30,737 nt of DNA. It comes from a virus (Duplodnaviria; Caudoviricetes). The notes beneath the pieces were generated by a model, which did no database searches, was not told the DNA's origin, and saw nothing but the letters and a program-made list of their open reading frames with translations. The stretch lies in the IMG/VR virus record IMGVR_UViG_3300027744_000080, positions 1 to 30,737 of that record. One strand, 5' to 3'. This document shows positions 611 to 22,528 of this stretch, in pieces. Each line of letters starts with the position of its first letter. The first letter of the stretch is position 1. The position numbers and the translations under genes are program-made.

Positions 611-669
611 GTATCATCCGCTTGGCTTGTCCTATGGGAAATGCTAAAATTAAGCATGGGAAACTTAAA

Positions 670-2147: not shown

Positions 2148-4250
2148 ATGGCAACGGAGCAAGAACTTGCCCAAGCGTTAAACCCTGCGTTTGGCATCTA
2201 TCCCAAGGCTTTTAGGGGCAACTACGGCAATCCAGAAGATGCTGCCAATTTGCCTGTGGATGTAATGCGGGGGCGCACGGCTGGCCTGTTGGGAATGTTT
2301 GGTGATGTTGTTAACCAGCCAATTGCATTTACGCCTGTCAGGGCTGCTCAGTTAGCCATGCAAGGCGTGATGGGCCAAGACAAGTACCCTGACACAGAGC
2401 ATTTCCTTAAAACAATGCCGCTAGCGCCCACATCCAGAGCCGGTGAGGTTGCGGGTCAGGCTGCATCGTTTGTGCCGTTAAACCCAGCGCCATTGGTTAG
2501 GGCAGGGGTTGCGGGGGCTAAAGCGCTTGCGCCAACGGCTGCGCGAATGACCGAAGGCTATTTGCAGCGGCAAGGATTGATGCCTGGCGTAATGCCAGAA
2601 CAGCCGTCCCTGCTTGGCAACATAACAACCAAACCAAAAGCGGAAGTGTCGCCATTGGGCTTTTACAGCGCAGTAGAACAGCAAGCCCTTAACATTCCCC
2701 GCAAGCAGGGCAGCGGCGAGTCATTCTTAAACGATCTGGCAAAAGGCCAAGATGTTAAAAAATACGAAATGGAAACGATGGGGCTTGATGAGTTTTTGAG
2801 GGGCAAACCCAATGTAACCCGACAGGAAGTGCAAGACTACATTGCTGGCAATCGCATCAATGTGCAGGAGAGGCAGTTGGGTGGCGCTTTAAGCCCAGAA
2901 ATGCAAACAACAAGAGATGCATTAAGTGATAAATATAAAGGACTTGTTGACAATATTGCAGATGCTAAATCTCAGTTTGAAGAAGGAAAAATATCTTATG
3001 CACAGGTAAGAAATACTGTATCAAATAATCAAGTGCAAATACAAGCACTTGATACACAAATAAACGAAATAAATAAAACAATATCACCTACCAAATACGA
3101 GCGTTATCAACTGCCAGGCGGTGAGAACTATCGTGAAATTTTGTTGACTTTGCCCAACAAGCCAATGGAGGCAAGCAAAGCAGCAGAAAATTATTACACG
3201 CAATTTGTTAAGCGCGGAGGCGAGCCAGAATGGGCGCAGTTAAATTCTGTAAGACAACAAGAAATTACAAACGCAATGCCAGCGCAAGCTAGAAACGCTT
3301 CAGCAGCACCGGAATACAGGTCAAGCCACTTTGACGAACCCAACATTTTGGCCCACATGCGGGTTAATGATCGCATAGACGCTGACGGCAAAAAGATGCT
3401 GCTGATTGAGGAAGTGCAGTCGGACTGGCATCAGGCTGGGCGGGAAAGGGGCTACCAAGGAAAAGGAACACTAAAAGAATTGCCTGATAATTATTTTGTA
3501 CAAGAAATTAAAACAATTGATGGCGACACCATGTATGTTGTTAGAGACAACAACAATCCAGGCGTTGTTCTTAATAAAGATTACAACAAACAAAGTGCTA
3601 TCAATGGCGTTATAAATGAATTAAATGCAACATCTGCTGGCGGTGTCCCAGACGCCCCCTTCAAAGACACATGGCATCAACTGGCGCTGAAACGGGCGCT
3701 AAAAGAAGCGGTGGACAAGGGCTACGACAGGATTGGCCTTACAACGGGGGCGCAGCAAGCAGAGCGCTACAACCTTGCCAAGCAAGTAGATGAAGTCATT
3801 GCCAAGCGCAACCCAGATGGCTCATTTAACTTGGATGCCACTTTGGTAGGTGGTGGGACGCAGCAAAGCATTGGCAAGAATATCGCCTCTGACAAGCTGG
3901 CTGACTATGTGGGCAAAGACCTGGCTACAACTATGCAAAGCCAAACCGCTGGCACTGATGTTTATAGCGGCGATGCCTTAAAAGTTGGCGGCGAGGGCAT
4001 GAAGAAATACTACGATGAGATTTACCCTGCTTTCCTTAACAAACAAGGCAAGAAATACGGCGCACAGGTGGGTGAGACAACAATTGGTAAAAAAGGAACA
4101 ATTGAAAAAGCTGGCAAAAGTTTTTACCAAACACCAGATACAAAGGAAACAGTGCGCTACCTTGACATCACGCCAGAAATGCGTAAAGCCATTCAGGAAG
4201 GCCAGCCAATTGCTTCTATCCAAAATGAATTAGCAAAGGCTTTGGCATGA
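2148..4250 (+). CDS. 700-aa putative virion-delivered protein with a polyvalent-protein-type domain (possible divergent GNAT-like fold)
   Basis: Blocks GFYSAVE, LPGGENYREILL, SHFDEPNILAHMR, LIEEVQSDWHQ, VPDAPFK..W..LALKR, GYDRIG.TTG, GMKKYYD, which I recognise from large phage virion proteins. Confidence 0.6.
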   Translation: MATEQELAQALNPAFGIYPKAFRGNYGNPEDAANLPVDVMRGRTAGLLGMFGDVVNQPIAFTPVRAAQLAMQGVMGQDKYPDTEHFLKTMPLAPTSRAGEVAGQAASFVPLNPAPLVRAGVAGAKALAPTAARMTEGYLQRQGLMPGVMPEQPSLLGNITTKPKAEVSPLGFYSAVEQQALNIPRKQGSGESFLNDLAKGQDVKKYEMETMGLDEFLRGKPNVTRQEVQDYIAGNRINVQERQLGGALSPEMQTTRDALSDKYKGLVDNIADAKSQFEEGKISYAQVRNTVSNNQVQIQALDTQINEINKTISPTKYERYQLPGGENYREILLTLPNKPMEASKAAENYYTQFVKRGGEPEWAQLNSVRQQEITNAMPAQARNASAAPEYRSSHFDEPNILAHMRVNDRIDADGKKMLLIEEVQSDWHQAGRERGYQGKGTLKELPDNYFVQEIKTIDGDTMYVVRDNNNPGVVLNKDYNKQSAINGVINELNATSAGGVPDAPFKDTWHQLALKRALKEAVDKGYDRIGLTTGAQQAERYNLAKQVDEVIAKRNPDGSFNLDATLVGGGTQQSIGKNIASDKLADYVGKDLATTMQSQTAGTDVYSGDALKVGGEGMKKYYDEIYPAFLNKQGKKYGAQVGETTIGKKGTIEKAGKSFYQTPDTKETVRYLDITPEMRKAIQEGQPIASIQNELAKALA

Positions 4251-4564: not shown

Positions 4565-5865
4565 TCCTTCCCTACAGTCCACGGGACGCATTCATGCCGT
4601 TCCACAACAGAACAGAGCGATGGGCTTGTTTAGTGGCTCACCGAAGGGCTGGCAAGACAGTCGCAGCCATCAACGACATCATCAAACGGGCAATCACTGA
4701 AGGCAACAGGATGGCGCAATATGCCTACATTGCCCCGTTCCGTAGCCAGGCCAAGCGGGTTGCATGGGACTATCTCAAGCATTACGCAGCTCCGATCACC
4801 AAAAACACCAACGAAGCTGATTTGCTGGTCGAGCTGGTTAACGGCTCAAAGATCATGCTGTTTGGCTCAGACAACGCTGATGCCATGCGGGGATTGGGCT
4901 TTAACGGGGTTTTCCTTGACGAATACGGCGACTTTAAGCCTAGCGTCTGGGGCAATGTCATACGGCCAACGCTGTCAGACCGGCTAGGCTGGGCAGTGTT
5001 TGGCGGCACTCCCAAGGGCAAGAACCAGTTTCACGACATTTACAGGGTCAGCCAAGCAACGCCAGGCTGGTTTCTGACCCGCCTGCCAGCCTCCATATCC
5101 AAGCTGCTGCCTGACTCTGAGCTAAAAGACGCACAGGATCAGCTAAGCCAAGACCAATACGACCAAGAATATGAGTGCAGCTTTGATGCCGCCATCCTCG
5201 GGGCTTTCTACGGCCAAGAGATGCGTTTGGCTGATGAACAGGGGCGTATTAGGGAATTACCCTTTGATCCTGAAAGCCCTGTTTTTAGTGCATGGGATTT
5301 GGGTTACAGAGATGACACGGCGGTCTGGTTTTATCAGGTGGTCAGGGGCGAGATCAGGGTTATGGATTACTACGCAGTCTCAGGCGCAAGTATTGAGGAA
5401 ATTGCTCAGGTGGTCATTGACAAGGGCTACCGCTACACCAAGCACTATTTGCCCCATGACGCAAGGGCCAAGACGCTGGCCTCGGGCGGTAAGTCAATTG
5501 TTGAGCAACTGGCGGCGCACTTGGGCGGCATGGCAAAGTTGGCAATTGTGCCTGAAATTGGGGTACAAGACGGCATTCAGGCGGTGCGGATGATCTTGCC
5601 CAACTGCTATTTTGACCCTTCTTGCGATGAGGGGCTGGAAGCACTAAGACAGTACCAAAGGGAATATGATGAGGACAAAAAGACATTTAGGCAAAATCCC
5701 CGTCATGACTGGTGCTCACATCCAGCAGATGCGTTTAGAATGTTAGCAGTGGCATATCGACAAGAGAACAAAGACGTTACGCCGCCCAAAGGCAAAACCC
5801 TGCAAACCATTACTCTCGATGAGATGTGGGACTTTGAGAACACTCACAAACAGGAGCGCATATGA
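4546..5865 (+). CDS. terL: terminase large subunit
   Basis: Walker A HRRAGKT, Walker B VFLDE, coupling motif GTPKG, nuclease WDLG..D and SH.ADAFR. Confidence 0.95.
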   Translation: MGKREVVLPYSPRDAFMPFHNRTERWACLVAHRRAGKTVAAINDIIKRAITEGNRMAQYAYIAPFRSQAKRVAWDYLKHYAAPITKNTNEADLLVELVNGSKIMLFGSDNADAMRGLGFNGVFLDEYGDFKPSVWGNVIRPTLSDRLGWAVFGGTPKGKNQFHDIYRVSQATPGWFLTRLPASISKLLPDSELKDAQDQLSQDQYDQEYECSFDAAILGAFYGQEMRLADEQGRIRELPFDPESPVFSAWDLGYRDDTAVWFYQVVRGEIRVMDYYAVSGASIEEIAQVVIDKGYRYTKHYLPHDARAKTLASGGKSIVEQLAAHLGGMAKLAIVPEIGVQDGIQAVRMILPNCYFDPSCDEGLEALRQYQREYDEDKKTFRQNPRHDWCSHPADAFRMLAVAYRQENKDVTPPKGKTLQTITLDEMWDFENTHKQERI

Positions 5866-6137
5866 GCCAGCCAGTAGCAGAAGTCGGTGCATACAAAAAC
5901 ATGACCGCAACAGGCGATGTAACCACAGGCCCATGCCAGCTTCTTGGGTTTTACGTCAACAGCACCAGCTCAGGCACTGTGGTGCTTAAAGACGGAGGCT
6001 CAAGCGGCACAGTCATTTGTGGCACGATCACGCCAGCCATAGGCTTTCACCGATTCCCAGCGACTGTAGGCACAAGCCTGCATTTCACTGAGGGCGGCAC
6101 AATGGATATAACCTTCTTCTTTGCCGCTGGCTTCTAA
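5862..6137 (+). CDS. small beta-rich hypothetical (likely virion) protein
   Basis: ATGA overlap with terL and TAATG overlap with portal; GGAG RBS. Confidence 0.7.
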   Translation: MSQPVAEVGAYKNMTATGDVTTGPCQLLGFYVNSTSSGTVVLKDGGSSGTVICGTITPAIGFHRFPATVGTSLHFTEGGTMDITFFFAAGF

Positions 6138-8440
6138 TGGCTTACGAAGACACAGGCGCTTACGAGGGCGAAGACCCTGGCCCGTATTGGCACGACCAAC
6201 TAGCAAACGCTGAGAAGGTCTTTGACAAGTGGGACAGGCGAGGCCATAAGATTGTTAAGCGATACCGCGATGAGCGCGATGCGGTTGAGATGCCACGGAT
6301 GAAGTTCAACATCCTCTGGTCAAACATCCAAGTGCTGATGCCTTCTCTGTACGGACGGCAAGCGAAGCCTGAAGTCTCCCGCCGGTATATGGATCAAGAC
6401 CCTGTAGGGCGCTTGGCTTCCACCATGCTGGAGCGCGTAATCGAATATGAAACAACGCAATTTAACGACTTTGACAGCGCAATGGTTAACGCTGTGCAAG
6501 ACCGGCTGTTGCCAGGTCGAGGCACAGTCTGGATTCGTTACGAGCCTGTAATCGTAGGTGAGCCAGCACCCGAAGTCGAGCTAGCCGAAGGTGAAGAACC
6601 GCAAGTCTCCAATGTCCAAGAATCGGGCGAGTCAATTGATTCTGCCCACAGCCCAATTGATTATGTGTACTGGAGCGACTTCCTGCACAGCCCAGCTCGG
6701 ACATGGGATGAAGTTTGGTGGGTAGCCCGTGCCGTCTACATGACCCGCGATGAGGGTGTGGAGCGCTTTGGCGATGTGTTTAAGAATGTCGGCCTGACTG
6801 ACCAGAACACAGACGATGACGGAAAGAATCAGCAGACAGTCAAGACAACCTTTGAGAAAAAGGCCAAGGTCTTTGAAATCTGGAACAAACGCACTTTTAA
6901 GGTGTGCTGGGTTGCCAAGGGCTATCCACAGTCGTTAGATGAGCGTGATGACCCGCTAGAGCTGGAAGGCTTTTTCCCATGTCCTCGGCCTTTGGTGGCT
7001 ACAACAACCACGGGAACAATGATCCCTGTTCCTGACTATTGCGAATATGAAGACCAAGCGCAAGAGCTAGACAACTTGACGCAGCGCATCTATATGCTGA
7101 CCAAAGCCTGCAAGGTGGTCGGTGTGTTTAACGCTGAGTTTAAGGAGCTGGGTCGGTTGTTTACAGAGGGCATTGACAACAAGATGTTCCCTGTGACTTC
7201 TTGGGCTGCGATGAGTGAGAAGGGCGGGCTAAAGGGTGCTATCGACATGATGGACACCTCGCAGATCGTCTTGACGCTGCAACAGTTATATGCAGCGCGT
7301 GAGGCGGTTAAACAGAGTATTTACGAAATTATGGGCATTTCGGACATTCTGCGCGGCGCATCCAAGGCACAGGAGACTTTGGGCGCACAGCAGCTCAAGG
7401 CTAACTTTGGCTCGCTGCGATTGAGAAGCAGCCAGGGCGAAGTGGCTCGGTTTGCCACAGACATCTTTAAGCTCAAAGCGCAAATTATCTGTAAGTTTTA
7501 CCCGCCTGAGCTAATTGTCGAGATGTCGGGCGTGATGAACACGCCAGATGGTCAAGACCCGCAAATGCTGCAAGCTGCGATCCAGATGCTGTCGAACAGC
7601 ACGATCCGCGACTTCCACATTGCAGTCGAGGCTGACAGCTTGGCTCAGATTGACGAACAGGCAGAAAAGCAAGGCGCACAAGAGGCTGTCCAAGCCATTG
7701 GGCTGTTCTTGCGTGAAGCCATGCCAATGGTAGGCGCTGCGCCTGAAACGCTGCCTATGGCCTCAGAAATGCTGCTGTTTTTAGTGCGCCGGTTTAAAGC
7801 TGGCAGGGGGCTGGAATCGGCTGTTGAACGGGCTATGAAAGCGCTGCAAGACAAGGCAGACCAAGCTGCCCAACAGCCACCAGCACCCGATCCAGAACAG
7901 ATGAAGATGCAGGCATTGGGTCAGTCTGAGCAAATGAAGATGCAAGCGCAAGTGCAGTCAGACCAAATGAAAATGCAAACAGAAATGCAGATGGCGCAAG
8001 CCCGTGCTGACTTTGACATGCAAATGCAGCAAGCAAAGATTCAGTCAGAAATGCAAATAGCGCAGATGAAATCTGAGTTTGAGACTGTTAAGCAACAAAC
8101 CGAAATGCAAATTAAGGCCAGAGAGATGGCAGGGAAGGAAGAATATGAACGATGGAAAGCAGAGCTGGACGCAGCGACCAAAATTATGGTTGCAAGGATT
8201 GGCAGCAACCCTGGAGTCGATTTACCAGTCGTTGAAGCGGCGGCTGCACAAATAACCAACGAGCTGGGCGGCACGATTTTGACGGCAATGGACAAGATTG
8301 CCATGATGCACGACCAGATGGCAAACATGCACGGGGACTCTATGCAAAACATAGGCATGGCTATGCAAAGACTTTCTGCCCCTAAACGCATTGTTAGAGG
8401 GCCAGATGGCAAGGCCATAGGCGTGGAAGTTGTCAGCTAA
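6137..8440 (+). CDS. portal protein (P22-like) with long Q/M-rich coiled-coil barrel
   Basis: 767 aa after terL; FNILWSN, YEIMGISDILRG, ETLGAQQLK motifs; Q/M-rich helical C-terminus. Confidence 0.88.
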   Translation: MAYEDTGAYEGEDPGPYWHDQLANAEKVFDKWDRRGHKIVKRYRDERDAVEMPRMKFNILWSNIQVLMPSLYGRQAKPEVSRRYMDQDPVGRLASTMLERVIEYETTQFNDFDSAMVNAVQDRLLPGRGTVWIRYEPVIVGEPAPEVELAEGEEPQVSNVQESGESIDSAHSPIDYVYWSDFLHSPARTWDEVWWVARAVYMTRDEGVERFGDVFKNVGLTDQNTDDDGKNQQTVKTTFEKKAKVFEIWNKRTFKVCWVAKGYPQSLDERDDPLELEGFFPCPRPLVATTTTGTMIPVPDYCEYEDQAQELDNLTQRIYMLTKACKVVGVFNAEFKELGRLFTEGIDNKMFPVTSWAAMSEKGGLKGAIDMMDTSQIVLTLQQLYAAREAVKQSIYEIMGISDILRGASKAQETLGAQQLKANFGSLRLRSSQGEVARFATDIFKLKAQIICKFYPPELIVEMSGVMNTPDGQDPQMLQAAIQMLSNSTIRDFHIAVEADSLAQIDEQAEKQGAQEAVQAIGLFLREAMPMVGAAPETLPMASEMLLFLVRRFKAGRGLESAVERAMKALQDKADQAAQQPPAPDPEQMKMQALGQSEQMKMQAQVQSDQMKMQTEMQMAQARADFDMQMQQAKIQSEMQIAQMKSEFETVKQQTEMQIKAREMAGKEEYERWKAELDAATKIMVARIGSNPGVDLPVVEAAAAQITNELGGTILTAMDKIAMMHDQMANMHGDSMQNIGMAMQRLSAPKRIVRGPDGKAIGVEVVS

Positions 8441-8792
8441 CTATTGGGACACGGGTGTATGGGATGAAGCCGTCTGGGATGGTGTTGATCCACCAGTGTC
8501 TGAACTGCCATTAGGAGGTCACTTTGGCTTCGATGAAAAGACGCGAGATAAACAGTGGCAAAGCGATTTAAAGGCTGAAAAACAAAGGCGTTTAAAGCTG
8601 CAAGAGGAATTATTTGGCCTGCCGCCAGAGCAAATAGAGCAAATAACCAGCAGCCCAGAGAAAACAATTGCTGTAGCAGCGGCTAAATATGCAGATTACG
8701 ATTCATTATTGCAACAAATTAACGCAATTAAAAAGCAAATTGATGATAATCAGGACGAATTAGACATTGAACTTTTGATTGGACAACTTTGA
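8430..8792 (+). CDS. hypothetical protein with N-terminal W-x4-W-x4-W motif
   Basis: TTG start overlapping portal end; WDTGVWDEAVWDG; helical acidic C-terminus. Confidence 0.6.
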   Translation: MSANYWDTGVWDEAVWDGVDPPVSELPLGGHFGFDEKTRDKQWQSDLKAEKQRRLKLQEELFGLPPEQIEQITSSPEKTIAVAAAKYADYDSLLQQINAIKKQIDDNQDELDIELLIGQL

Positions 8793-9211
8793 AAACCACA
8801 TGGCGATACCCTGCTGATGGCAGCGAACCTTACGAGGTCGGCACATATCAAAGCGAGACAATTACCACTGTGATGGGCGACATTGAGCCGTTTCGATCAC
8901 CGGATGGGGTCATGATTACAGGGCGCAAGCAGTGGCGGGAGCATTTAAAGACCACAGACAGCATCGAAATGGGGCATTCTGATGTAAAGTATGCTCAACA
9001 AGAGTGGAACAGGAAAAAGGAAGTTCAGCGGGAACGGCTGAAGGGTCAGGTCGCCACAGTGCAAGAGTTTGACCGGCCAGGCGCACCGATTGCCCCAATG
9101 CGGATGAGTGGGCTGAATGTGGAAATGGCAAACCGCCTGCACAACAGGCCAATGCCAGAGCGCAAAGAGATGATTAAGATGACTTTGGAACAAATGAAAA
9201 GGATGAAGTGA
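8789..9211 (+). CDS. conserved hypothetical phage protein between portal and scaffold
   Basis: DIEPFRSPDG..ITGR..WREHLK motif; coupled overlaps at both ends. Confidence 0.7.
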   Translation: MKTTWRYPADGSEPYEVGTYQSETITTVMGDIEPFRSPDGVMITGRKQWREHLKTTDSIEMGHSDVKYAQQEWNRKKEVQRERLKGQVATVQEFDRPGAPIAPMRMSGLNVEMANRLHNRPMPERKEMIKMTLEQMKRMK

Positions 9212-10242
9212 TGGAAAATGAAGTTGTCGCACCCGACACAACAGAAGCACCAGCACCAGAAGCGCCAGCAGTAGAAGTCAAGGCTGAACCCAGCCGTGCC
9301 GATACGATCCGCGAGGCAATGAAGCAGACGGAGGACAAACCGCCCCGTCTTGCAAGAGCGCCTAGAGAGGCGAAAGAAGCCAAAGCCACAGACCCCAAAT
9401 TCCCTACTGAGAAGACCGAAGCCCCGAAGATGGCAGAAATGCCAAAATCGTTGCGGCGCGAGTTAAAAGAGCATTGGGAGAAAGCCCCAAGCGAGCTACA
9501 GCAAGCAATTGCCCAGCGTGATGCTGACTATGAAAAGGGCATTGCCAGCTACAAAACCCGTGATGCAGAGGCAAGGCAGATCACAGAGCAATTTGCACCC
9601 TACGAGTGGATTTTGCGGAACGAGAACACCACCCCAGCGGCAGCAATTGGCCCACTTTTGCAGACGGCAGCGCTGCTTCGGACGGGAACGCCACAGCAAA
9701 AGAGCCAAGCTGTCGCCCAAATGATCCAGCAGTTCCAGATTCCGCTGGATCAGGTGGCCTCATATTTTAATGGCGAGACTCCACAGCCAGAAAATACTCA
9801 TTACAATCAACTAGCGCAGCAAGTACAGCAGCTCACGCAGCACATCACGCAGAGCCAGTATGAAGCGCAGAAACAGAATGAAAATCGAGCACTCTCGGTT
9901 ATCCAGCAGTTTGCAGGCGACCCTGCCAATCTGCATTTTGAGGCAGTCTCTGACCGAATGTTGCAGCTTCTCCAAGCGCCACAGGTGTTAGGTGACACAA
10001 GTCAGATGTCAGAACGCGAGAAATTGCAACTGGCTTATGACACGGCAGTGCGGCTTGATCCAGCTATCGCGCAGCAGTTTTATGCTCAACAGCAACAAAA
10101 CACGCAAGCAGCTAACCAAGTGCAAAGAGCAAAAACAGCGGCGGTACAGGTACGAGGAGCACCAGGCTCTAGCATCAGTGGCGCTATTAATCAGACAGAC
10201 CGGCGAGCCGTTATAGCAAATGCGCTACGGCAAATCGGATAA
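9211..10242 (+). CDS. capsid scaffolding protein
   Basis: Acidic/Pro-rich N-terminus, Q-rich coiled coil, directly upstream of the major capsid gene; TGATG coupling. Confidence 0.8.
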   Translation: MENEVVAPDTTEAPAPEAPAVEVKAEPSRADTIREAMKQTEDKPPRLARAPREAKEAKATDPKFPTEKTEAPKMAEMPKSLRRELKEHWEKAPSELQQAIAQRDADYEKGIASYKTRDAEARQITEQFAPYEWILRNENTTPAAAIGPLLQTAALLRTGTPQQKSQAVAQMIQQFQIPLDQVASYFNGETPQPENTHYNQLAQQVQQLTQHITQSQYEAQKQNENRALSVIQQFAGDPANLHFEAVSDRMLQLLQAPQVLGDTSQMSEREKLQLAYDTAVRLDPAIAQQFYAQQQQNTQAANQVQRAKTAAVQVRGAPGSSISGAINQTDRRAVIANALRQIG

Positions 10243-10255
10243 TTAGGAGTAAGTT

Positions 10256-11236
10256 ATGGCATACGCCAACGCAAATTACTCAGACGTATTGGCAACGACC
10301 ATTGAAAGTCGTTCCGGCATTGTTGCGGATAACGTGACAAAGAACAATGCCTTGCTGACCCGTCTGCGCGAGAAGGGCAAAATGAAGCCTTTCTCTGGTG
10401 GTTCGACCATTCTGCAAGAATTGTCATTCCAAGCCAACAGCACAGCCATGTATTATTCTGGCGCTGAAACACTGAACATCTCCCCAGCGGATGTGATTAG
10501 TGCTGCTCAGTTCCCGATCAAACAGGCAGCAGTGGCAGTTACGATCAATGGTTTGGAAATGCTCCAAAACAGCGGCGAAGAACAGATCATCGACTTGTTT
10601 GATGCCCGTTTGGACGTTGCTGAAGCATCTATCGAAAACTTGATCTCCACTGGTATTTACTCGGATGGTACGGCCAACAACGGCAAGCAGATCACTGGTC
10701 TGCAAGCTATGGTGGTTGCATCTCCGTCTACTGGTGTGGTCGGCGGTATTGATCGTTCTACATGGTCATTCTGGCGCAACCAGACTTTTGACTTCTCTAC
10801 TGATCTTGGTGCTTCTGCATCCAGCTCAAACATTCAGTCGGGTTTTAACCGACTGTATGCAAAGACAAGTCGCGGTTCTGACGTTGTTGACCTGATCCTG
10901 TTGGATAACAACCTGTGGGGCTTCTTCATGTCCTCACTGCAAAACATTCAGCGTTTCCCTGGCTCTAGCAAGATGGCCGAACTCGGCTTTGTTGCATCCA
11001 AGTACATGAATGCCGATGTGGTTCTAGACGGCGGTATCGGTGGAAATATTCCTACCGGCACAGGCTATTTCCTGAACACAAAATACATTTTCTTCCGGCC
11101 TCACGCAAACCGCAATTTCGTCCCAATCGGCGATGAGCGTATGAGCACCAATCAGGACGCAATCGTGCGCTTGATCGGTTGGGCTGGCAATATGACTGCT
11201 TCTGGACTCCAGTTCCAGGGCATCATGACTGAATAA
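10256..11236 (+). CDS. major capsid protein
   Basis: 326 aa, strong AGGAG RBS, DNV.KNNALL..L, IYSDGT..GKQITGL, GGIDR...FWRN, YFLNTKY motifs; position after scaffold. Confidence 0.88.
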   Translation: MAYANANYSDVLATTIESRSGIVADNVTKNNALLTRLREKGKMKPFSGGSTILQELSFQANSTAMYYSGAETLNISPADVISAAQFPIKQAAVAVTINGLEMLQNSGEEQIIDLFDARLDVAEASIENLISTGIYSDGTANNGKQITGLQAMVVASPSTGVVGGIDRSTWSFWRNQTFDFSTDLGASASSSNIQSGFNRLYAKTSRGSDVVDLILLDNNLWGFFMSSLQNIQRFPGSSKMAELGFVASKYMNADVVLDGGIGGNIPTGTGYFLNTKYIFFRPHANRNFVPIGDERMSTNQDAIVRLIGWAGNMTASGLQFQGIMTE

Positions 11237-11247
11237 GGAGCAATATC

Positions 11248-11784
11248 ATGTCTTCAGATTACGTCACAGACGGCAAAATCGGCATTGACTTGACGGCTAC
11301 TTATGCGTCAACCAGTGCTGGCTCTACTTCCCTTTTTCCTGTTACACCAGGCAGTCGGGTCAATACGAGCAACAACGGCGTTTACATTTTTGTTCGCGCA
11401 GAAAGCACAATTGCTGCTTTTGATGCGGTCATCATGTCTTCATTTGCAGATTCGGCAAGCACCACACCCGTGATGCGAGCTGTTCCTGTAACCACTACCA
11501 ACGCTGCTGCGCTGGGTTTCAACATGGTCGGCTTTGCACAAACCGCAATCGCATCTAGCTACTACGGCTGGGTCGGTCTGAATGGTTTGCTGCAAGTTAA
11601 CTTGTTGATTGGCTGCAACCCTAAAGTGCCGCTGTACACCACTGCAACTGCTGGATCACTGGACGACACCACTGTGTCGGCTGGTTTCATCCAGGGCATT
11701 GTGGCGAACACATCGGCAACCAGCGCAAGCGCACCATTCTGCATGGTAAACAATGCTGGCCTGATGATGGTCGGCGCAGGCTAA
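11248..11784 (+). CDS. putative capsid decoration/cement protein, Ser/Thr-rich
   Basis: TAAGGAG RBS, directly after MCP and before the terminator; small-residue beta-rich sequence, YYGWV and LYTTATAG.LDD motifs. Confidence 0.65.
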   Translation: MSSDYVTDGKIGIDLTATYASTSAGSTSLFPVTPGSRVNTSNNGVYIFVRAESTIAAFDAVIMSSFADSASTTPVMRAVPVTTTNAAALGFNMVGFAQTAIASSYYGWVGLNGLLQVNLLIGCNPKVPLYTTATAGSLDDTTVSAGFIQGIVANTSATSASAPFCMVNNAGLMMVGAG

Positions 11785-11789
11785 AAATC

Positions 11790-11821
11790 GACTCCTCCCT
11801 TAAAAAAGGAGGGGTCTTTTT
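11790..11821 (+). terminator. Rho-independent terminator after the capsid genes
   Basis: Stem GACTCCTCC (11790-11798)/GGAGGGGTC (11808-11816) followed by TTTTT. Confidence 0.8.
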
Positions 11822-11822
11822 A

Positions 11823-13454
11823 ATGAGTCTTTTACCCCTAAAAATCACTGGTCAGTGTGTCTCAGATGACGATACACTTTTTGGACACATGGATGCCGCG
11901 ATTGCTCGGGGCTATCCACAAGTCACACAAGCGCAAGACCCTAAAAAGGGCAAAGTCGTTTTAGTGGCAAGTGCGCCAAGTGTCAGGGGGCAGATAGAGC
12001 TTATTAAAAAGATGAAGGCAGACGGGTTGCCCATTGTGGCAATCAAAGGGGCGCACGATTGGCTAATTGATAACGGCGTGATTCCTGATTACGCTTTAGC
12101 CATTGACCCGCAAGAACACCGGATCGCGTTTTACAAGCCAAACAAGGCTGTTCATTACATGATTGCCAGCCAGTGCCACCAAGCGCTGTTTGACAACTTA
12201 GACGGCCACAATGTCACGCTTTGGCATCCGTACATCAAAAAAGGCCAAGACCGGCCAAAAAACTGCATGCTCATTGGCGGCGGCACAACTTCCGGTCTAA
12301 GGGCTATTTCCCTGTTTTATGTGCTTGGCTGGCGCAACTTTGAGCTGTTTGGCTTTGATTCGTGCAATGACGGCTCAGAGCTAAGGGTCAACGGCGATGG
12401 CCTCAAAGACGGCGACAAGCTGATCGAAGTCAGGATAGAGCCACAGGGTGAGCCGTTTTACTGCAATGCGGCAATGGCGCTGCAAGCTGAACACTTCCAG
12501 ACCTACTACGACTATCTGCCAGATGCCACCTTTACGGGGCATGGGCATGGGTTGATTCAGGCCATCATCAAGAAACGCAGCCAGAATGTCTTTGAGCTGG
12601 CGGGGCTGATTGACAAGCGCAAAGAGCTAAACACACGCACATCGTTCATTCATTGGGGCGACAACAAGTCAGCAAGCTGGCGCTATCGGGCAAAGATACC
12701 GGCAGGGGATTGGGCAAGCCTGAACGACCTGACGGCTGACACGCTGGTGTTTGCCAAGCCCCAAGCGCAAGAGCTGATGGACATGGCACGGGCCAAGGCA
12801 CGGGGCGCATGGATTGTGGTGGACTTTTGCGATGACCACTTTGATTGGATGCACTACCAAGAGGCGCTGCGCCTGGCCGATGTGGTTACTTGCCCCACTG
12901 ATGAGATGGCAAGGCGCATCAAAGTGCTGGAACGTGATGCCGTGGTCATTCCTGATCCGTTTGAGTACCCGCTGAAGAAGCCACATTGCAAGGGTGTTAA
13001 CCTGTTGTGGTATGGTCACCAAGTTAACAGAGCAAGCCTAGAGCGCATCTTGCCCGAGATAGCGGGTTATCACCTACGGGTGGTTTCCAACTTTGCAGGG
13101 TCGATTCCGTGGTCAAAGAAGACCATGCTCAAAGAGTTTGCACAAGCTGACATTGTGGTGCTACCCGCTACAGAGACTTACAAGAGCGCCAACAGAGCAA
13201 TTGAGGCGATCCGACAGGGTTGCTTTGTGGTGGCAGAGCCTCACCCTGCGCTAGAGGGTTTCCCGATCTACATTGGCAACATCAAGGACGGCATTGAATG
13301 GACTTTAAAGAACAAAGCAAACCGGCTCATATCGAAGGCGCAGTCTTTCGTGACGGGAAAATTCTCGCCGCAAACACTAAGCGCCAAGTGGAAGATAGCT
13401 ACGAAACGGCCTACAACCTTGGATGTGGAACAAAAAAATGGGACGGATGGATAA
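11823..13454 (+). CDS. fusion: Maf/DUF115 (MptE-like) domain + GT-B-like glycosyltransferase domain
   Basis: N half: ASAPS, GAHDWL...IPDY...DP, GGGTTSGLRA...LG...LFGFDSC. C half: SASWRYRA, VVDFCDDHF, ADVVTCPT, VIPDP, LLWYG, ADIVVLP...KSANR.IEA..QG..VVA. Confidence 0.75.
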   Translation: MSLLPLKITGQCVSDDDTLFGHMDAAIARGYPQVTQAQDPKKGKVVLVASAPSVRGQIELIKKMKADGLPIVAIKGAHDWLIDNGVIPDYALAIDPQEHRIAFYKPNKAVHYMIASQCHQALFDNLDGHNVTLWHPYIKKGQDRPKNCMLIGGGTTSGLRAISLFYVLGWRNFELFGFDSCNDGSELRVNGDGLKDGDKLIEVRIEPQGEPFYCNAAMALQAEHFQTYYDYLPDATFTGHGHGLIQAIIKKRSQNVFELAGLIDKRKELNTRTSFIHWGDNKSASWRYRAKIPAGDWASLNDLTADTLVFAKPQAQELMDMARAKARGAWIVVDFCDDHFDWMHYQEALRLADVVTCPTDEMARRIKVLERDAVVIPDPFEYPLKKPHCKGVNLLWYGHQVNRASLERILPEIAGYHLRVVSNFAGSIPWSKKTMLKEFAQADIVVLPATETYKSANRAIEAIRQGCFVVAEPHPALEGFPIYIGNIKDGIEWTLKNKANRLISKAQSFVTGKFSPQTLSAKWKIATKRPTTLDVEQKNGTDG

Positions 13455-13900
13455 ATGTCGATCTTTACTCGGATGTCTCAGACATTAAATGCGATCTGCG
13501 AAAGCTGGAAATTGCGTCTGATTCGGCTGATGCCGTGGCTGCGATTCATGTTTTAGAGCACTTTTACGAGTGGGAAGTCGCTGATCTGCTGACTGAGTGG
13601 AAACGGGTGCTAAAGCCTGGCGGCAAGATGATCCTAGAGCTGCCCTGCATGGACAAGGTGTTTGCTTACGTCCACAACTGTGTGGTTAATAAAGAGCCGT
13701 TGCAGCCCTTTATGACCCTGCATGCGCTGTATGGCGACCCGAAATATAAGAACGAGGCAATGTGCCACCATTGGGGCTGGTTTCAAGTTCCATTGAGCCA
13801 GATGCTGGAGTCGGTGGGCATGCAGCGCATAGAATTTTTTGAGCCTCGCTACCATTTCCCATTCAGAGACATGAGGGTCGAATGCTACAAGGAGTCTTGA
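13388..13900 (+). CDS. class I SAM-dependent methyltransferase (Methyltransf_11-like)
   Basis: NLGCG...GWINVD, HVLEH, EW.RVLKPGG...LELP; start uncertain (GTG 13388 or ATG 13298). Confidence 0.85.
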   Translation: MEDSYETAYNLGCGTKKWDGWINVDLYSDVSDIKCDLRKLEIASDSADAVAAIHVLEHFYEWEVADLLTEWKRVLKPGGKMILELPCMDKVFAYVHNCVVNKEPLQPFMTLHALYGDPKYKNEAMCHHWGWFQVPLSQMLESVGMQRIEFFEPRYHFPFRDMRVECYKES

Positions 13901-14616
13901 GCAACGCAGAGCGCCATGCCCAGATGTCGCAGGCGTATGGGCAAATGCTCAAGAAAAAGACCAAATTTAACGATAAATGGGCATCAATTGTTTGCTACGG
14001 GCCAAGCCTAGCCGACACATGGCAACAGATAAAACGCCCAATCGTCACTGTTTCAGGAGCGCATGACTACCTTGTCGAGCGAGGCATCGTGCCAGATTTC
14101 CATGTGGACTGCGATCCCAGAGAGCACAAGGCCAGAATGCTTAAAAGGCCACAGAAGGCCACAACATACCTAATGGCTACTGTATGCCATCCAAGCTGGT
14201 GGGAAGCCCTAAAGGGCTATAACGTGCGTCTGTGGCACTTGATTAACGGCAACGACTTAGACACAGTGGCATGGGTAGCGGCAAACCATCCAGAAGGCTT
14301 GAACAGCATGATTTCGGGTGGCTCGACTGTAGGCATGAGGGCAATGGAAGTGATGGCGGCGTTAGGGTATCGGCGGTTTAAGTTTCACGGCATGGATTGC
14401 AGCTACTTAACAGACCGGCATGCAGGGCCACATTTGGGTAAAAATCAAGATAAAATATTTGTCAAGGCTGGGGACAGGGTGTTCCAGACCACACGGCAAA
14501 TGCTTGAGGCGGCAATCGAGATGGAGCAATTCATCAAGACTCAGGATGCAGAGCTTGCATTTTTTGGCGATGGTTTAATGCAAGAAACCGCGCTACAACT
14601 AAAGGAAATGGCATGA
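13882..14616 (+). CDS. second Maf/DUF115 (MptE-like) domain protein
   Basis: YGPSL, GAHDYL...IVPDF...DP, SGGSTVGMRA...LGY..F.FHGMDCS, GDGLMQ; paralogous to the N half of 11823..13454. Confidence 0.75.
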   Translation: MLQGVLSNAERHAQMSQAYGQMLKKKTKFNDKWASIVCYGPSLADTWQQIKRPIVTVSGAHDYLVERGIVPDFHVDCDPREHKARMLKRPQKATTYLMATVCHPSWWEALKGYNVRLWHLINGNDLDTVAWVAANHPEGLNSMISGGSTVGMRAMEVMAALGYRRFKFHGMDCSYLTDRHAGPHLGKNQDKIFVKAGDRVFQTTRQMLEAAIEMEQFIKTQDAELAFFGDGLMQETALQLKEMA

Positions 14617-15200
14617 AAAACGAAGTGGCTGGATGGACAGACGAATCATTTATGGAGAGCAATCGCGGCAAGATGGCGGTATTTTTCCATGCGGTTCAGG
14701 TGCAGAACAACTTTAGAACGGCTGAAGAAAAGCGCCCAATCTTTCAAGAGCGTATTTTCTTGAAAAAGCTAGTGCCAGGCGACAACACCCTGACCATTGA
14801 CCGGCCAATGCGTGAGCAAGACATCGAAGACTTCCCCGTAGAGTGGGCAAGGTTTGAGCAAAAGAAAGAGGAAACAGTGCCAGGCACTCCAATCGAGGTG
14901 TGGAGCGCTGTTTCTGAGACTCAAAAGGCTGAATTTAAGGCGCTAAACATCTTTACGATTGACCAGTTTGCCCAGCTTTCAGACATTGTTGGCAACAAGA
15001 TTATGGGCTTTAACGATTTGCGCGACAAGGCTCGGGCGTTTATTGCTGCTGCTGAAGATTCGCAAATGTTTGACAAAATCCGTGCTGAAACTGATGAAAA
15101 ATTGAAGGCTCAGGATGCTGAAATGGCTGAACTTCGTGCGATGATTGCAGAGTTGACGGCCAAAAAAGCTGGTCGCCCTAAAAAAGAATTGGTGGAGTAA
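14613..15200 (+). CDS. conserved hypothetical protein of the head-tail region
   Basis: RPIF...PGD, F..EW.RF, GTPI..W, NIFTIDQ.A.LSD motifs, C-terminal GRPKK; AAGGAAA RBS, ATGA overlap. Confidence 0.75.
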   Translation: MKNEVAGWTDESFMESNRGKMAVFFHAVQVQNNFRTAEEKRPIFQERIFLKKLVPGDNTLTIDRPMREQDIEDFPVEWARFEQKKEETVPGTPIEVWSAVSETQKAEFKALNIFTIDQFAQLSDIVGNKIMGFNDLRDKARAFIAAAEDSQMFDKIRAETDEKLKAQDAEMAELRAMIAELTAKKAGRPKKELVE

Positions 15201-16115: not shown

Positions 16116-17662
16116 TGCTGGCCTCATTTGCTAAAGCGCCACTTACGCAGCGCAGTCAAACAGTTTCGGTAGCTGCGCCCATTGGCGGGTGGAACGCAAG
16201 AGATTCATTGGGCGCGATGGATGCAATGGATGCGGTGACGCTGACCAACTTCTGGCCTGGCACTAACTCCGTTATTTTGCGAAATGGCTACACCAAGTTT
16301 GCCACTGGCATTGTGGGCCAAGTTGAAACGATCATGTCTTATAGCTCTGGCACGGCCAATGAGTTATTTGCAGCGGCTGATGATTCAATCTACAACATCA
16401 CGGCTGGCGGTGCGGTTGGGGCGGCTGATGTAACAAGCCTGACAAACGCACGATTCCAATACACCAACATCACCACATCAGCAGCATCTTATTTAATGTG
16501 CGTTAACGGCGCAGACAAGCTCAGAATTTATGACGGCTTGGCTTGGCACACCGATGGGGACGGCGTACCTTACAACATCACCAATATTGACACAGCCACT
16601 GTTTCAAACATCACGCTGTTTAAAAACCGGATTTGGCTGACAACAAACGACTCACTTAAAGTTTGGTATTTACCGGTTAACTCCATTGGCGGGGCAGCGG
16701 TTGCGTTAGACATGACCAGCATCTTTCAGATGGGTGGCTACATTGTGGCTGGCATGACATGGACGCTAGACGCTGGCTATGGTGTGGATGACTATTTAGT
16801 CTTCATTACAAGCAACGGCGAAGCGTTAGTTTGGCGGCTAACTGATCCGACAACCCCATCAGGGATTTCGCAAATTGGCTTGTTCAGGGTTGGCGCACCT
16901 ATTGGCAGGCGCTGCTATACCAAGTTTGGCGGCGACTTGCTCATCATTACGCAAGATGGTGTAGTGCCTATGGCGGGTGCATTGCAAAGCTCACGACTTG
17001 ACCCACGGGTATCAATTACCAACAAAATCCAATACGCAATGGGTCAGGCAGGCACTACCTACGGGGCAAATTTTGGGTGGCAATTGCTTTACTACCCAAA
17101 AGAAAATCAATTAATAATGAATGTGCCAATTGCTTTAGGTCAGCAACAACAGTATGTGATGAACAACATTACTAAAAGCTGGTGCAACTTTACGGGTTGG
17201 TATGCTAATTGTTGGGAGTTGTTTGAGGATGATCCTTACTTTGGCGGTGATGGATTTGTGGCGGCGGCTTGGAACGGCACTGTGGATGACACTTCCAACA
17301 TCGAAGGCTTTGCCCTGCAAAGTTTCCAGAATTACGGCGCGGCAACCCAAAAACAATGCAAGATGATCCGCTATCACTTGTTTTCAGACGGCAATCCTAC
17401 GATCTTTGGCAATGTCAATGTTGACTACAACCTGAATGACCAGAGCGCACAGTTAACCTTTTTTGGGTCTACTGTTGGCCTTTGGGACACGGGATTGTGG
17501 GATTCTGCGCTTTGGGGCGGTGGTTTAGCTCCTTCAGCAAACTGGGAAGGTGCGACAGAAATCGGCTATACCTTTGCGCCGCTGTTGAAAACTGCCACTC
17601 AGGGAATACAATTACAGTGGGTCGCAACCGATCTAGTGTTTGAGGCCGGTGGTGTCCTTTGA
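16115..17662 (+). CDS. tail hub / packaged-DNA stabilisation protein (P22 gp10-like)
   Basis: APIGGWNARD N-terminus, NGAD, FKNRIW, GGDL..IT.DG, beta-propeller-like; ATG 16115 via TAATG overlap. Confidence 0.75.
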   Translation: MLASFAKAPLTQRSQTVSVAAPIGGWNARDSLGAMDAMDAVTLTNFWPGTNSVILRNGYTKFATGIVGQVETIMSYSSGTANELFAAADDSIYNITAGGAVGAADVTSLTNARFQYTNITTSAASYLMCVNGADKLRIYDGLAWHTDGDGVPYNITNIDTATVSNITLFKNRIWLTTNDSLKVWYLPVNSIGGAAVALDMTSIFQMGGYIVAGMTWTLDAGYGVDDYLVFITSNGEALVWRLTDPTTPSGISQIGLFRVGAPIGRRCYTKFGGDLLIITQDGVVPMAGALQSSRLDPRVSITNKIQYAMGQAGTTYGANFGWQLLYYPKENQLIMNVPIALGQQQQYVMNNITKSWCNFTGWYANCWELFEDDPYFGGDGFVAAAWNGTVDDTSNIEGFALQSFQNYGAATQKQCKMIRYHLFSDGNPTIFGNVNVDYNLNDQSAQLTFFGSTVGLWDTGLWDSALWGGGLAPSANWEGATEIGYTFAPLLKTATQGIQLQWVATDLVFEAGGVL

Positions 17663-18095
17663 AATAAAATCCGATCATGCGGTTGGTCACTGGACTGCCA
17701 AGCAGCTCGATGGTGGATATTTTGAAGAACGCAGCCGTGCGATTGGGCTGGCAAGAGATGGTGAAATAATTGCTGGCGTGATTTACGAGAACTGGAACGG
17801 GCAATCAATTTTTTGCCACATTGCGATTGAGGGTCGGATCACTGCAAGCTACCTAGCTGCAATTTTTGATTACCCGTTCAATGTTTGCAATGTCAAAAAG
17901 ATCATTGTCCCTGTAGACGCAACAAATGCAAAAAGCATAACTCTGGTTGAGAAGATGGGCTTCACAGAGGAGGCAAGGGTTAAAGATGGAATGGCTGATG
18001 GTGACTTAATTTTGTTCACATTGGCAAAAAGTGATTGCAAATATTTAGGGGAAAGATATGGGGAAAAAGACAACACCGCCACCACCATCGCCTGA
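17652..18095 (+). CDS. GNAT-fold acetyltransferase-like virion assembly protein
   Basis: AGVIYE, FDYPF, N.KS..LVEKMGF.EE motif; conserved slot between hub and ejection genes; GAGG RBS before GTG 17652. Confidence 0.75.
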   Translation: MSFEIKSDHAVGHWTAKQLDGGYFEERSRAIGLARDGEIIAGVIYENWNGQSIFCHIAIEGRITASYLAAIFDYPFNVCNVKKIIVPVDATNAKSITLVEKMGFTEEARVKDGMADGDLILFTLAKSDCKYLGERYGEKDNTATTIA

Positions 18096-20699: not shown

Positions 20700-22528
20700 T
20701 GGCAACGCTTGTTGAGTTTCGCGCCAAAAACCCAGAGTACAACGACATGCCAGATGTGGCATTAGCGGATGCAATGCACTCCAAGTTTTACGCTGACATT
20801 CCTAAACCACAGTTTTACAAGCAACTTGGATTAGGCGCGGAGACACAAATTCCTGGCGGCGAAACGGCAACCACACTGCCACCAAAGCCTGTAACAATGC
20901 GTGATCGCATTATGGGCGTAGTTGAAACGCCTGCAATTATTGCTGGCAATGTTGGGCGCATGATTGCAGCGCCAATTGCAAAATACGGCACAGAGGCGGT
21001 TGTAGGTTGGAACACGCCTGAAGGCATGAAGCAAGGGCAACAGGCTGCACAAACAACATCTAATCAGTTTTATCAGCCAAGGACAGAAACCGGCTCTGAC
21101 ATTGTTGGATCAATGGCAAAAGTGTTAGGGGCAATTCCTCCTACGCCATTGACTAGCGCGGGGGTGGCTCTATCAACGCTTGCTGGCCCAGCGCTAACGC
21201 AAACGGCAAGGGCAATTCAGCCTGCAATGCAAACTGCTACGCAAACGCCAGCGATGCAAAAAATGGCTGCATTGCTTAAGCCACCAGAAAAACAAATGGT
21301 GGGCATGGGCGCAGCTAGTACAGATGAAGTTTTGCTACGCCAGCAACGGGCGCAGGCACAGGGCATTCCGCTAACTAAGGGCGAGCAACTGCAAGATTTT
21401 GGGCTAATGAAGCGTGAATCGGATTTGCCTAAAGAAAACCCAGATTTGGCTAAAGGCTTGATTGAATTTAAAGCAGGGCAAAAGCAAGCCATCATTAAGC
21501 GTTTTGAACAAATGGCTGATGAAACCGGCGCAGTCTACGCTGACCCAACTGCCTTTAGAAAAGTTGGCTCTTTAGTGGACACAGAAGTTGTCAAACAATT
21601 TGATGCCAAAAAATTAAGGGTAGACAACGCTTATCAAGCGGCTAGAGATGCTGGCGAAACAAAGCAAGTGGTTAGCACTGCACCATTAGAACAATGGCTT
21701 GCAGCTAATGCGCCAGAGGCTATTTCTGTTCCTGAAATTAATTCAATTGCGGCAAAACTTGAAGCGCTAAAAAAGGCAAGAAACGGCCAAGTCACCATTG
21801 ACGATGTTGAAAACCTTTACAAAGCTGCTGGTCAACTTGGTAAAAAAGGTGATCCATCAGGCATGTTTATGGGCCAAGTTAAGGGCGTTATTAATGACAT
21901 GACTGAAGGCGCTGGTGGCGACTTGTATCGTGCCGCAAGGGTGCAACGCAAAGAGCTTGGCAACCAGTTTGAAAACACCTATAGAGTGGCTAAATTGCTA
22001 GGCACAAGAGGCGGTTATGGTGATCGGGCTGTGGCGCTAGACGATGTGTTTTCGCATGTTGTTTTGGATGGCAGCTTAGAAGAAATGCGGACTGTTACCC
22101 AATTGCTGAAAAAGGGTGGGCCACAAGGTCAGCAGGCTTACGCTGAATTGCAGGGTCAGACAATCCAATACCTTAAAGATCAGCTTACAAAAAATGCTAG
22201 CGGTGAGTTGTCCTTTGCTAAGGTCAAGAACGCAATCGACACGCTTGATCGTGAAGACAAACTGGCGTACATGTTTGGCAAGTCAGGGCGTAACACCTTG
22301 ATTGATGTGCGCGATGCGATACAAGATGCGTTAGTCAAGCCGCCTGGCACTGTCAATTATTCCAATACGGGTAGTGTTGTAATTAGAGGCTTGGACAAGC
22401 TGGCAGAAATGCGAGTGCCTTTGGCTAAGTCAGCATCGGATATTGCTAAATCGCGGGAAGTTAAAAAACAAGTGGAAGAATCCACAAAATACAACGCTTT
22501 GGTTGACGCTTTGAAAGGTACAAAATGA
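20699..22528 (+). CDS. internal virion/ejection protein 3 (gp16-like slot)
   Basis: FR.K.PEY.DMPD..LADAMH.KFY.D N-terminal motif, GIPLT.G, N.SNTG near the C-terminus; helical. Confidence 0.65.
   Translation: MATLVEFRAKNPEYNDMPDVALADAMHSKFYADIPKPQFYKQLGLGAETQIPGGETATTLPPKPVTMRDRIMGVVETPAIIAGNVGRMIAAPIAKYGTEAVVGWNTPEGMKQGQQAAQTTSNQFYQPRTETGSDIVGSMAKVLGAIPPTPLTSAGVALSTLAGPALTQTARAIQPAMQTATQTPAMQKMAALLKPPEKQMVGMGAASTDEVLLRQQRAQAQGIPLTKGEQLQDFGLMKRESDLPKENPDLAKGLIEFKAGQKQAIIKRFEQMADETGAVYADPTAFRKVGSLVDTEVVKQFDAKKLRVDNAYQAARDAGETKQVVSTAPLEQWLAANAPEAISVPEINSIAAKLEALKKARNGQVTIDDVENLYKAAGQLGKKGDPSGMFMGQVKGVINDMTEGAGGDLYRAARVQRKELGNQFENTYRVAKLLGTRGGYGDRAVALDDVFSHVVLDGSLEEMRTVTQLLKKGGPQGQQAYAELQGQTIQYLKDQLTKNASGELSFAKVKNAIDTLDREDKLAYMFGKSGRNTLIDVRDAIQDALVKPPGTVNYSNTGSVVIRGLDKLAEMRVPLAKSASDIAKSREVKKQVEESTKYNALVDALKGTK

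Follow-up and report, generated by a model that had tools for sequence, protein, structure and literature searches.

A Maf-like cassette predicted to O-glycosylate the decoration protein of an uncultured Mx8-like podophage

The DNA analysed here, a viral stretch of 30,737 nucleotides (IMG/VR record IMGVR_UViG_3300027744_000080, hereafter the window), covers 91% of a virus record and comes from an uncultured, Mx8-like podophage, and directly 3' of the capsid genes it carries a cassette of putative glycan enzymes. The cassette comprises three overlapping open reading frames (ORFs) on the + strand. ORF-A (11823-13454, 543 aa) joins an N-terminal Maf-like domain (MafA, residues 1-256, 11823-12590) to a C-terminal domain of glycosyltransferase (GT) B fold (residues about 270-523, 12630-13454, with a short tail that overlaps the next gene); it is followed by a class I S-adenosylmethionine (SAM) methyltransferase (13298-13900, 200 aa) and by ORF-B (13882-14616, 244 aa), a stand-alone Maf-like domain (MafB). 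Judged from the sequences and from structure models, the cassette probably O-glycosylates the putative decoration protein of the capsid with an ulosonic acid taken from its host-made cytidine monophosphate (CMP) derivative, either 3-deoxy-D-manno-octulosonate (Kdo) or a nonulosonate, after which the glycan would be extended and methylated. Virion glycosylation, first suggested in an earlier note made from the sequence alone, is the best-supported reading, though unproven, and it is favoured by the fold, by the catalytic residues, by the position of the genes across lineages and by their co-inheritance with the decoration gene.

Both Maf-like domains match PF01973 (ORF-A residues 41-182, E 6.8e-18; ORF-B residues 21-176, E 1.8e-19) and they are paralogous to each other (31% identity over 198 aa, E 7e-28); together with the fold searches, this agrees with the earlier description of two paralogous Maf/DUF115-like domains, one of them fused to a GT-B-like domain. 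The motifs that had been listed for both domains are present, except that ORF-A has SQCH instead of [A/T]xCH. The AlphaFold2 model of ORF-B has a pLDDT (predicted local distance difference test) of 94 and the model of ORF-A a mean pLDDT of 68. Structure comparison with Maf, the sialyltransferases and MptE, a check suggested in the earlier note, placed the Maf structure 5MU5 nearest to both domains. For the ORF-B model, Foldseek gave 5MU5 at E 2.4e-9 versus MptE (8SD5) at E 2.2e-5, and VIA gave 5MU5 at Z 20.4 (215 aligned residues, root-mean-square deviation 3.1), MptE at Z 14.2 and sialyltransferases at Z 8-9. The Maf domain of ORF-A behaved in the same way (VIA: 5MU5 Z 20.2, 219 aligned, deviation 2.6; MptE Z 13.6), so that in either model 5MU5 is some 6 Z units ahead of MptE. 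With a profile built from eight distant homologues at the same genomic junction, 5MU5 scored E 1.6e-13 versus E 0.012 for MptE, and the sole NCBIfam match of both domains, a weak one, was the flagellin-modifying PseD. Profiles or folds were required for these results, and single-sequence searches of the PDB with ORF-B or with the GT8-like protein described below returned nothing useful.

The same fold raises the question of whether the PF01973 domains could be phosphotransferases of the MptE or thiamine-pyrophosphokinase kind, acting on a pterin, on another small molecule or on a protein. The Pfam family is named MptE-like, and MptE is the second-ranked fold match of both domains, followed by SteA and the thiamine pyrophosphokinases. 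In MptE, the aspartates of SDLDGD and FTDGD (GGFTDGDR in 8SD5) have a role in binding Mg-ATP; in the phage domains they are replaced, by DP and by GG[TS]TxG[LM]RA. This replacement, the distance of 5MU5 above MptE by both sequence profile and fold, and the identified companion genes, all of them glycan enzymes save for HNH, transposase and DNA-methylase passengers, make a kinase function highly improbable. The earlier caveat that the fold also covers MptE kinases therefore holds as far as the shared fold is concerned, but it is much weakened by the scores and the missing aspartates. No paper on the MptE structure was found in the literature searched.

Two residues, E324 and D415, are both required for the activity of MmMaf, according to the available part of bioRxiv 10.1101/2020.06.03.131540, and by alignment their counterparts are D95 and D179 in MafA and D78 and D172 in MafB. 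The counterpart of E324 is Asp in all 129 distinct domains compared and that of D415 in 128 of the 129, and D78, D172 and H184 of MafB are invariant across 80 homologues. A His after the GxD motif is found in 112 of the 129 domains, including MafB, while MafA has R188 instead; since MafB keeps the His and MafA has Arg, the paralogues probably differ in role. For the third essential residue of Maf, a Ser (S334 in CbMaf, S356 in GkMaf), the candidate counterpart is the Ser of the ASQC motif, a position at which ORF-B has Thr.

According to the mechanism that we propose, MafA would act in the cytoplasm and move an ulosonic acid from host CMP-Kdo or CMP-nonulosonate onto a Ser or Thr in a loop of the decoration protein, T155-S161 (11710-11730, + strand), which holds the predicted glycosylation sites. 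The GT-B domain, a GT8-like enzyme and MafB would lengthen the glycan or add branches to it, or else MafB could act on a second virion protein, and the methyltransferase would cap the glycan by O-methylation. The outcome would be a phage head with a methylated acidic glycan made from host nucleotide sugars; the likeliest purpose of such a charged and variable coat is to shield the head or to alter adsorption. A Kdo donor is available in almost any Gram-negative host. As the earlier note had stated, the window holds no sugar-synthesis genes: the Pfam scan found no such family among its annotated ORFs, and PF02348 and PF03102 were found neither in the window nor in three complete relatives (complete relatives of the window phage measure 33.7-35.5 kb), which would put host CMP-Kdo on a par with a nonulosonate as a plausible donor. 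The sole genome match that could be a trace of the host, a phage-sized contig of 33.4 kb within a Burkholderiaceae metagenome-assembled genome, is possibly a binning artefact; that genome encodes both KdsB and a NeuB-family enzyme, and it thus leaves the donor sugar undecided. Maf enzymes transfer Kdo as well as N-acetylneuraminic acid (Neu5Ac) to Ser/Thr (available part of bioRxiv 10.1101/2020.06.03.131540). Consequently, in the earlier proposal of a methylated, possibly nonulosonate-containing glycan, the methylated glycan is still the likely product and the nonulosonate is not established.

The likely acceptor is the putative decoration or cement protein (11248-11784, + strand, 178 aa, 23% Ser+Thr; phrog_29386 'virion structural protein', E 2.9e-6) and not the major capsid protein (MCP; 10256-11236, + strand; Mx8-like family, phrog_9953, E 1.7e-106), which could be a minor acceptor. 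With GC content as covariate, the Ser+Thr content of the decoration protein is 20.6% in phages that carry a Maf gene (Maf-positive) versus 17.4% in those that do not (37 versus 14 sequences, p 0.003); for the MCP the values are 15.5% versus 14.2% (44 versus 22 sequences), and no increase was seen in the scaffold, p50, tail adaptor, stabilisation protein, portal or GNAT of Maf-positive phages. Hand-picked sister contrasts were positive in 6/6 cases for the decoration protein and in 6/9 for the MCP. The difference extends to single positions (1002 tests): in the C-terminal loop of the decoration protein, column 144 is Ser/Thr in 37/37 Maf-positive versus 5/14 Maf-negative sequences, and column 147 in 29/37 versus 1/14. 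A Lys column is distributed in the same manner (33/37 versus 2/14) and is a gap in the window protein. The loop T155-S161 is invariant in all 57 distinct sequences of the window's own clade, and its alignment to the Ser/Thr loop that characterises decoration proteins linked to Maf is gapped. A column scan of the MCP (3288 tests) yielded no convincing Ser/Thr acceptor column, the best Ser/Thr p being 0.006.

Co-inheritance points in the same direction. On trees of 43 phages that have the decoration, MCP, p50 and tail-adaptor genes, the Maf-positive or Maf-negative label requires 4 changes (FastTree) or 3 changes (IQ-TREE) on the decoration tree, and 5 changes when the loop is left out, and none of 500 shuffles was as low. 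On the other trees the label requires 9-10 changes (MCP), 10 changes (p50) and 8 changes (tail adaptor); the p50 homologue of Mx8 (14613-15200, + strand, phrog_20268), a core gene that closes the insertion site, served as the linkage control. A mis-picked 'decoration' ORF in locus L329 was disregarded. In 30 Maf-positive phages the Maf distance follows that of the decoration protein (rho 0.56; partial 0.52, p 0.001), compared with rho -0.02 for the MCP, 0.22 for p50 (partial 0.13, p 0.04) and 0.12 for the adaptor. One Maf-positive phage, L238, appears to be a natural swap illustrating the co-inheritance of Maf and decoration genes: it shares 84-86% of its MCP and 60-62% of its p50 residues with the Maf-negative L237 and L240, but its decoration protein is only 36-38% identical to theirs and 74-79% identical to those of Maf-positive phages whose MCP identity is 34-43%. 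Dereplication of the 50 complete loci of the window's clade left 27 genomes. In these, the divergence of the decoration protein follows that of MafA (rho 0.67, partial 0.61, p 0.002) and does not follow that of the GT-B half of ORF-A, the methyltransferase or MafB.

It is nevertheless conceivable, though unlikely, that the virion is glycosylated on another protein, such as the MCP, the product of a 91-aa gene at 5862-6137 or the tail proteins, or that the GT-A or GT-B enzymes begin the glycan and Maf does no more than cap it, the link to the decoration protein being a matter of hitch-hiking. The higher Ser+Thr content of the MCP in Maf-positive phages fits another acceptor, as does the finding that within the clade the GT-B domain, the methyltransferase and MafB track the MCP and the scaffold (rho 0.63-0.74), and in several lineages a Ser/Thr-rich gene of about 120 aa comes after Maf; the fold shared with the glycan sialyltransferases (Z 8-9) would suit capping. 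Across lineages, however, Maf does not track the MCP, and the Ser/Thr columns and the co-segregation on trees are specific to the decoration protein; against capping, Maf is the sole transferase at the junction in 3/44 clusters. Two further putative virion proteins of the window are rich in Ser/Thr and may be additional acceptors, namely that encoded at 5862-6137 (23%), whose gene is duplicated in tandem in genome G002, and that at 22525-23340 (31%). The gene of about 120 aa, which is conserved and rich in Ala, Ser and Thr, lies directly after Maf at 8753-9115 in locus L308, 4447-4806 in L351 and 9295-9654 in L294; the one example scanned had no Pfam match, and the gene has no counterpart at the window junction.

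The position of the cassette is conserved. On its 5' side lie the MCP and the 178-aa virion structural protein and on its 3' side the p50 homologue, a tail-tubular/adaptor gene and a stabilisation gene; ORF coordinates and phrog matches thus bear out the earlier statement that the three overlapping genes directly follow the MCP and decoration genes, and of the description 'between capsid and neck genes' the position is right, while the downstream genes are podovirus tail-adaptor genes and not neck genes. The window MCP is 51-58% identical to those of Mx8, ppBjS10J-1 and BUCT555. In four annotated relatives (Mx8, ppBjS10J-1, ctMlz233 and RHph_I3_18) the gene after the MCP abuts the p50 gene, so the cassette represents a late-operon insertion at a known junction; in BUCT555 lysis genes separate the two. 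Searches returned 212 relatives of ORF-B among 376 candidates and 410 of ORF-A among 8000 scored, and the order decoration-MafA-GT-B-methyltransferase-MafB-p50 is kept, as far as the contigs reach, in 81/81 IMG/VR loci (ORF-B identity 67-100%), many of which are near-copies. The neighbours in BFVD are proteins of uncultured tailed phages, with weaker matches to giant viruses, and the cultured relatives of the MCP family infect Gram-negative hosts.

A synteny survey with the MCP, also suggested earlier, found Maf genes at the same capsid/p50 junction in many distant lineages. In the MCP-seeded scan, which covered 17 of the collection's 64 parts and kept the best 80 of the 562 that were confirmed, the junction was visible in 56 loci, which form 25 clusters at 85% MCP identity, and a Maf gene was present there in 8 of the 25. 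Two Maf-seeded scans added 116 new loci, of which L302, without an intact Maf ORF, was omitted from the counts of composition and position. Among the other 115, the gene lies between the MCP/decoration and p50/tail-adaptor genes in 101, one flank is visible in 14, and none has neither flank, a count biased by the choice of Maf-scan seeds from junction genes. On the MCP tree, a quick one, the module requires 13 gains or losses, at least 8 of these changes being forced by strong branches.

This position also bears on the idea that the enzymes modify surface glycans of the host (lipopolysaccharide (LPS), capsule or an appendage) and bring about superinfection exclusion or receptor masking. Phage GTs are known to bring about serotype conversion, the chemistry of GT-B, GT8, FkbM and ulosonate enzymes is typical of LPS loci, and one relative carries a Cro-like gene, a hint that it may be temperate. 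We nonetheless regard this idea as decidedly improbable, for the genes belong to the late operon of the head and follow a terminator-like hairpin, the only promoter-like site is weak and on the opposite strand (versus 3.4 sites expected by chance), the cassette proteins have no membrane anchors (no hydrophobic stretch of transmembrane grade; maximal KD19 1.19 versus 2.26 for the holin), and the genes are co-inherited with a virion protein. The hairpin, followed by a T-run, lies between the decoration gene and ORF-A and over the GGAGG that precedes ORF-A (11790-11822, + strand, -15.8 kcal/mol); it would reduce the expression of the enzymes relative to that of the MCP and the decoration protein. 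It is not specific to the cassette, since phages without Maf also have similarly stable folds 3' of their decoration gene.

The companions of the Maf domains are predicted glycan enzymes. Residues 270-471 of ORF-A, two Rossmann-like domains, match GT-B structures at Z 8-10 (SenB, LpxB, SdgB, GtfA, GlgM and others), and residues 391-476 match PF13692 below the cut-off (E 8e-5); the C-terminal half is modelled with low confidence, and from so many GT-B matches no CAZy family can be assigned. Structures of the KpsC/KpsS type are not in the list of GT-B matches, and their absence there does not rule such types out. The ESM Atlas neighbours of the GT-B domain are viral clusters, including glycosyltransferase clusters of giant viruses; the look-alikes of 12630-13454 form stand-alone, unannotated, virus-only clusters, some of them from giant viruses. 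The methyltransferase between the two Maf domains, as described earlier, is confirmed by PF08241 (E 2.8e-10), and it is predicted to be a sugar O-methyltransferase; among NCBIfam models, that of the oligosaccharide methyltransferase MftM matches it best (E 1.3e-7, far below cut-off).

The methyltransferase gene starts at 13298 (ATG) or 13388 (GTG), and it overlaps ORF-A by 157 nt (13298-13454). The ATG, the start codon at 13388 and the stop codon of ORF-A are each kept in 45/45 ungapped relatives; variation between 13298 and 13387 is spread over all codon positions, a dual-coding pattern, and after 13388 it falls on third positions of the methyltransferase frame. A programmed frameshift that would fuse the GT-B domain to the methyltransferase was considered and rejected, because the A-run near 13434, downstream of SAM motif I, is not conserved, the ORF-A stop is kept in 45/45 and the methyltransferase has conserved starts of its own.

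A GT8-like (GT-A type) glycosyltransferase of 251 aa is encoded at 595-1350 (+ strand; PF01501, E 3.5e-6, above cut-off), outside the coordinates given in the earlier note. Homologues (31-33%) lie within the cassette of loci L084 and L085, between the methyltransferase and ORF-B, and the gene was found in 5/5 relatives searched; it is therefore likely to be a displaced member of the system. Locus L084 also encodes, at 8129-9148 within the cassette, a 339-aa protein whose homologue in L360 is a domain joined to Maf (7932-9632); the 339-aa protein is likely an unrecognised glycan enzyme. Across the Maf-positive MCP clusters, a methyltransferase (FkbM, Methyltransf_24, _23/_25 or _11) is present in 34/44 and an N-terminal domain bearing DxD in 25/44, its GT-A label being taken from the DxD in the absence of a Pfam match; Maf stands without another transferase at the junction in the 3/44 clusters mentioned above. 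Companions seen at single loci are a sugar C-methyltransferase, a GT2, a hexapeptide acyltransferase, a protein with a weak sulfotransferase match and, in one distant locus, a PseB/FnlA-like dehydratase, which points to nonulosonate or deoxy-sugar synthesis in that locus.

With such enzymes in a late operon, hypermodification of the phage DNA with sugars before packaging should also be considered. Late DNA modification exists, as in the case of Mom. Phage GT-A and GT-B enzymes glycosylate DNA, and this requires a 5-hydroxymethyl handle made by a ThyS-like enzyme or 5mYOX (available part of 10.1101/2023.12.21.572611). PF00303 (ThyS) is absent from 4/4 genomes with the controls working, no oxygenase and no polymerase of the phage's own turned up when early genes sampled from relatives were scanned against Pfam, and in one close relative a Mom gene is present separately; DNA as the substrate has accordingly the slightest chance among the explanations discussed here. 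A TET/JBP search was blank, as was its positive control. The Mom-family DNA-modifying protein of the close relative (G001, L162 13797-14612; PF25680, E 1.3e-18) is encoded beside a Cro-like gene.

Several observations weigh against glycosylation of the decoration protein by this cassette. First, concerning the enzymes, MafA lacks the His that is present in 112/129 domains, the phage domains (244-256 aa) are far shorter than bacterial Maf (666 aa) and miss its flagellin-binding parts, and no cultured phage matches the Maf domains, a single weak match to the GT-B domain being all that was found. Second, concerning the acceptor, its name rests on position and on weak matches, for it has no PDB match and no solved homologue, and weak PF09956 and PF23982 (cement/minor-capsid) matches occur in 1/42 members of its family; the window protein is 13-32% identical to members outside the clade and has no residue in the Lys column of the family, and its loop alignment is gapped. 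Third, concerning the statistics, the MCP sister contrasts are not significant, Maf-positive phages with an unrelated gene of about 95 aa after the MCP (e.g. L270, L299 and L316) were dropped from the decoration tests, and the within-clade correlation falls with distance (0.67, 0.27, 0.14, 0.19). Since the Maf genes are direct neighbours of the decoration genes, co-inheritance would also result from block recombination that starts in the 98%-identical MCP. Finally, the position count comes from seeds in junction genes, and the junction also houses lysis genes (BUCT555), HNH and DNA-methylase genes and is thus a general insertion site.

Other genes of the window are described here for completeness. 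A GNAT acyltransferase in the tail module (17640-18095) is kept in Mx8-like podophages whether they carry the cassette or not; some close relatives lack it. The adjacent ORFs at 1340-2146 and 2148-4250 are nearly identical in their first 13 residues and different in the rest; a few relatives have variable ORFs that begin with related N-termini, and the stretch could be a common leader for virion targeting. The second of these ORFs (700 aa) matches phrog_7348.

Taken more broadly, these data lead us to a tentative proposal, on which we would not insist: a widespread group of podophages of the Gram-negative type has repurposed a flagellin glycosylation enzyme as a minimal protein O-ulosonyl transferase of about 250 aa, carried as a swappable cassette with its own decoration protein and furnishing the head with glycans of Kdo or nonulosonate that are variable and capped with methyl groups, which would give 'glyco-serotypes'. 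The present clade would be the most elaborate seen, with a His-less MafA for the decoration protein and MafB for a second step or target. If glycosylation of the decoration protein is true, virion glycosylation, which within the searched and partly accessible literature had been shown for tailed phages only in mycobacteriophages, would extend to a large group of podophages (the module is present in 8/25 clusters of the MCP-seeded sample) and to a different chemistry, the direct, flagellin-type transfer of acidic sugars to Ser/Thr. No paper on phage Maf/DUF115 genes was found in a search with thin coverage of subscription journals. The data name a specific pair of enzyme and substrate and a loop of seven residues. 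A stand-alone Maf domain of 250 aa would show how Maf chooses its acceptor and might find use in glyco-engineering, and a glycan coat would bear on how stable the virions are, on their adsorption and on grazing in natural waters.

Comparison with known systems places the phage domains closest to Maf. The archaeal 6-hydroxymethyl-7,8-dihydropterin pyrophosphokinase MptE (8SD5) shares their Pfam family and fold (Z 13.6-14.2), but the phage domains are nearer to Maf, without the DxD and FTDGD aspartates and without the context of a pterin pathway. The sialyltransferases of GT42 (CstI/CstII) and GT29 have a related CMP-ulosonate transferase fold (Z 7-9); they are much further from the phage domains than Maf is, and they act on glycans and not on Ser/Thr directly. 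In mycobacteriophages, virion glycosylation is described for Che8 gp110, Corndog gp38 and Myrna (Freeman et al. 2023, as available in part). As far as these partial accounts go, such systems resemble the one predicted here in being phage-encoded sets of several GTs that modify virion proteins with host sugars; their acceptors are the C-termini of capsid and tail-tube proteins in phages of Actinobacteria, whereas here a decoration protein is predicted in a phage whose relatives are of the Gram-negative type, and the accounts that cite them give no sign of a Maf-fold enzyme. With the Maf O-glycosyltransferases of flagellin (5MU5, GkMaf, CbMaf and Campylobacter PseD; PF01973) the phage domains have the fold of the catalytic domain in common (Z about 20, 215-219 residues aligned), together with the equivalents of E324 and D415 in both domains and the His after GxD in MafB, and in both cases a soluble enzyme adjoins a Ser/Thr-rich structural protein. 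On the other hand, the phage has only the catalytic domain of about 250 aa in place of 666 aa, in a head operon and with no flagellin among the scanned ORFs of the window, and it has two paralogues, one of them fused to a GT-B domain, along with a methyltransferase and a GT8-like enzyme. The phage domains thus appear to work like Maf while lying, shortened and without flagellin, outside the family of flagellar Maf proteins.

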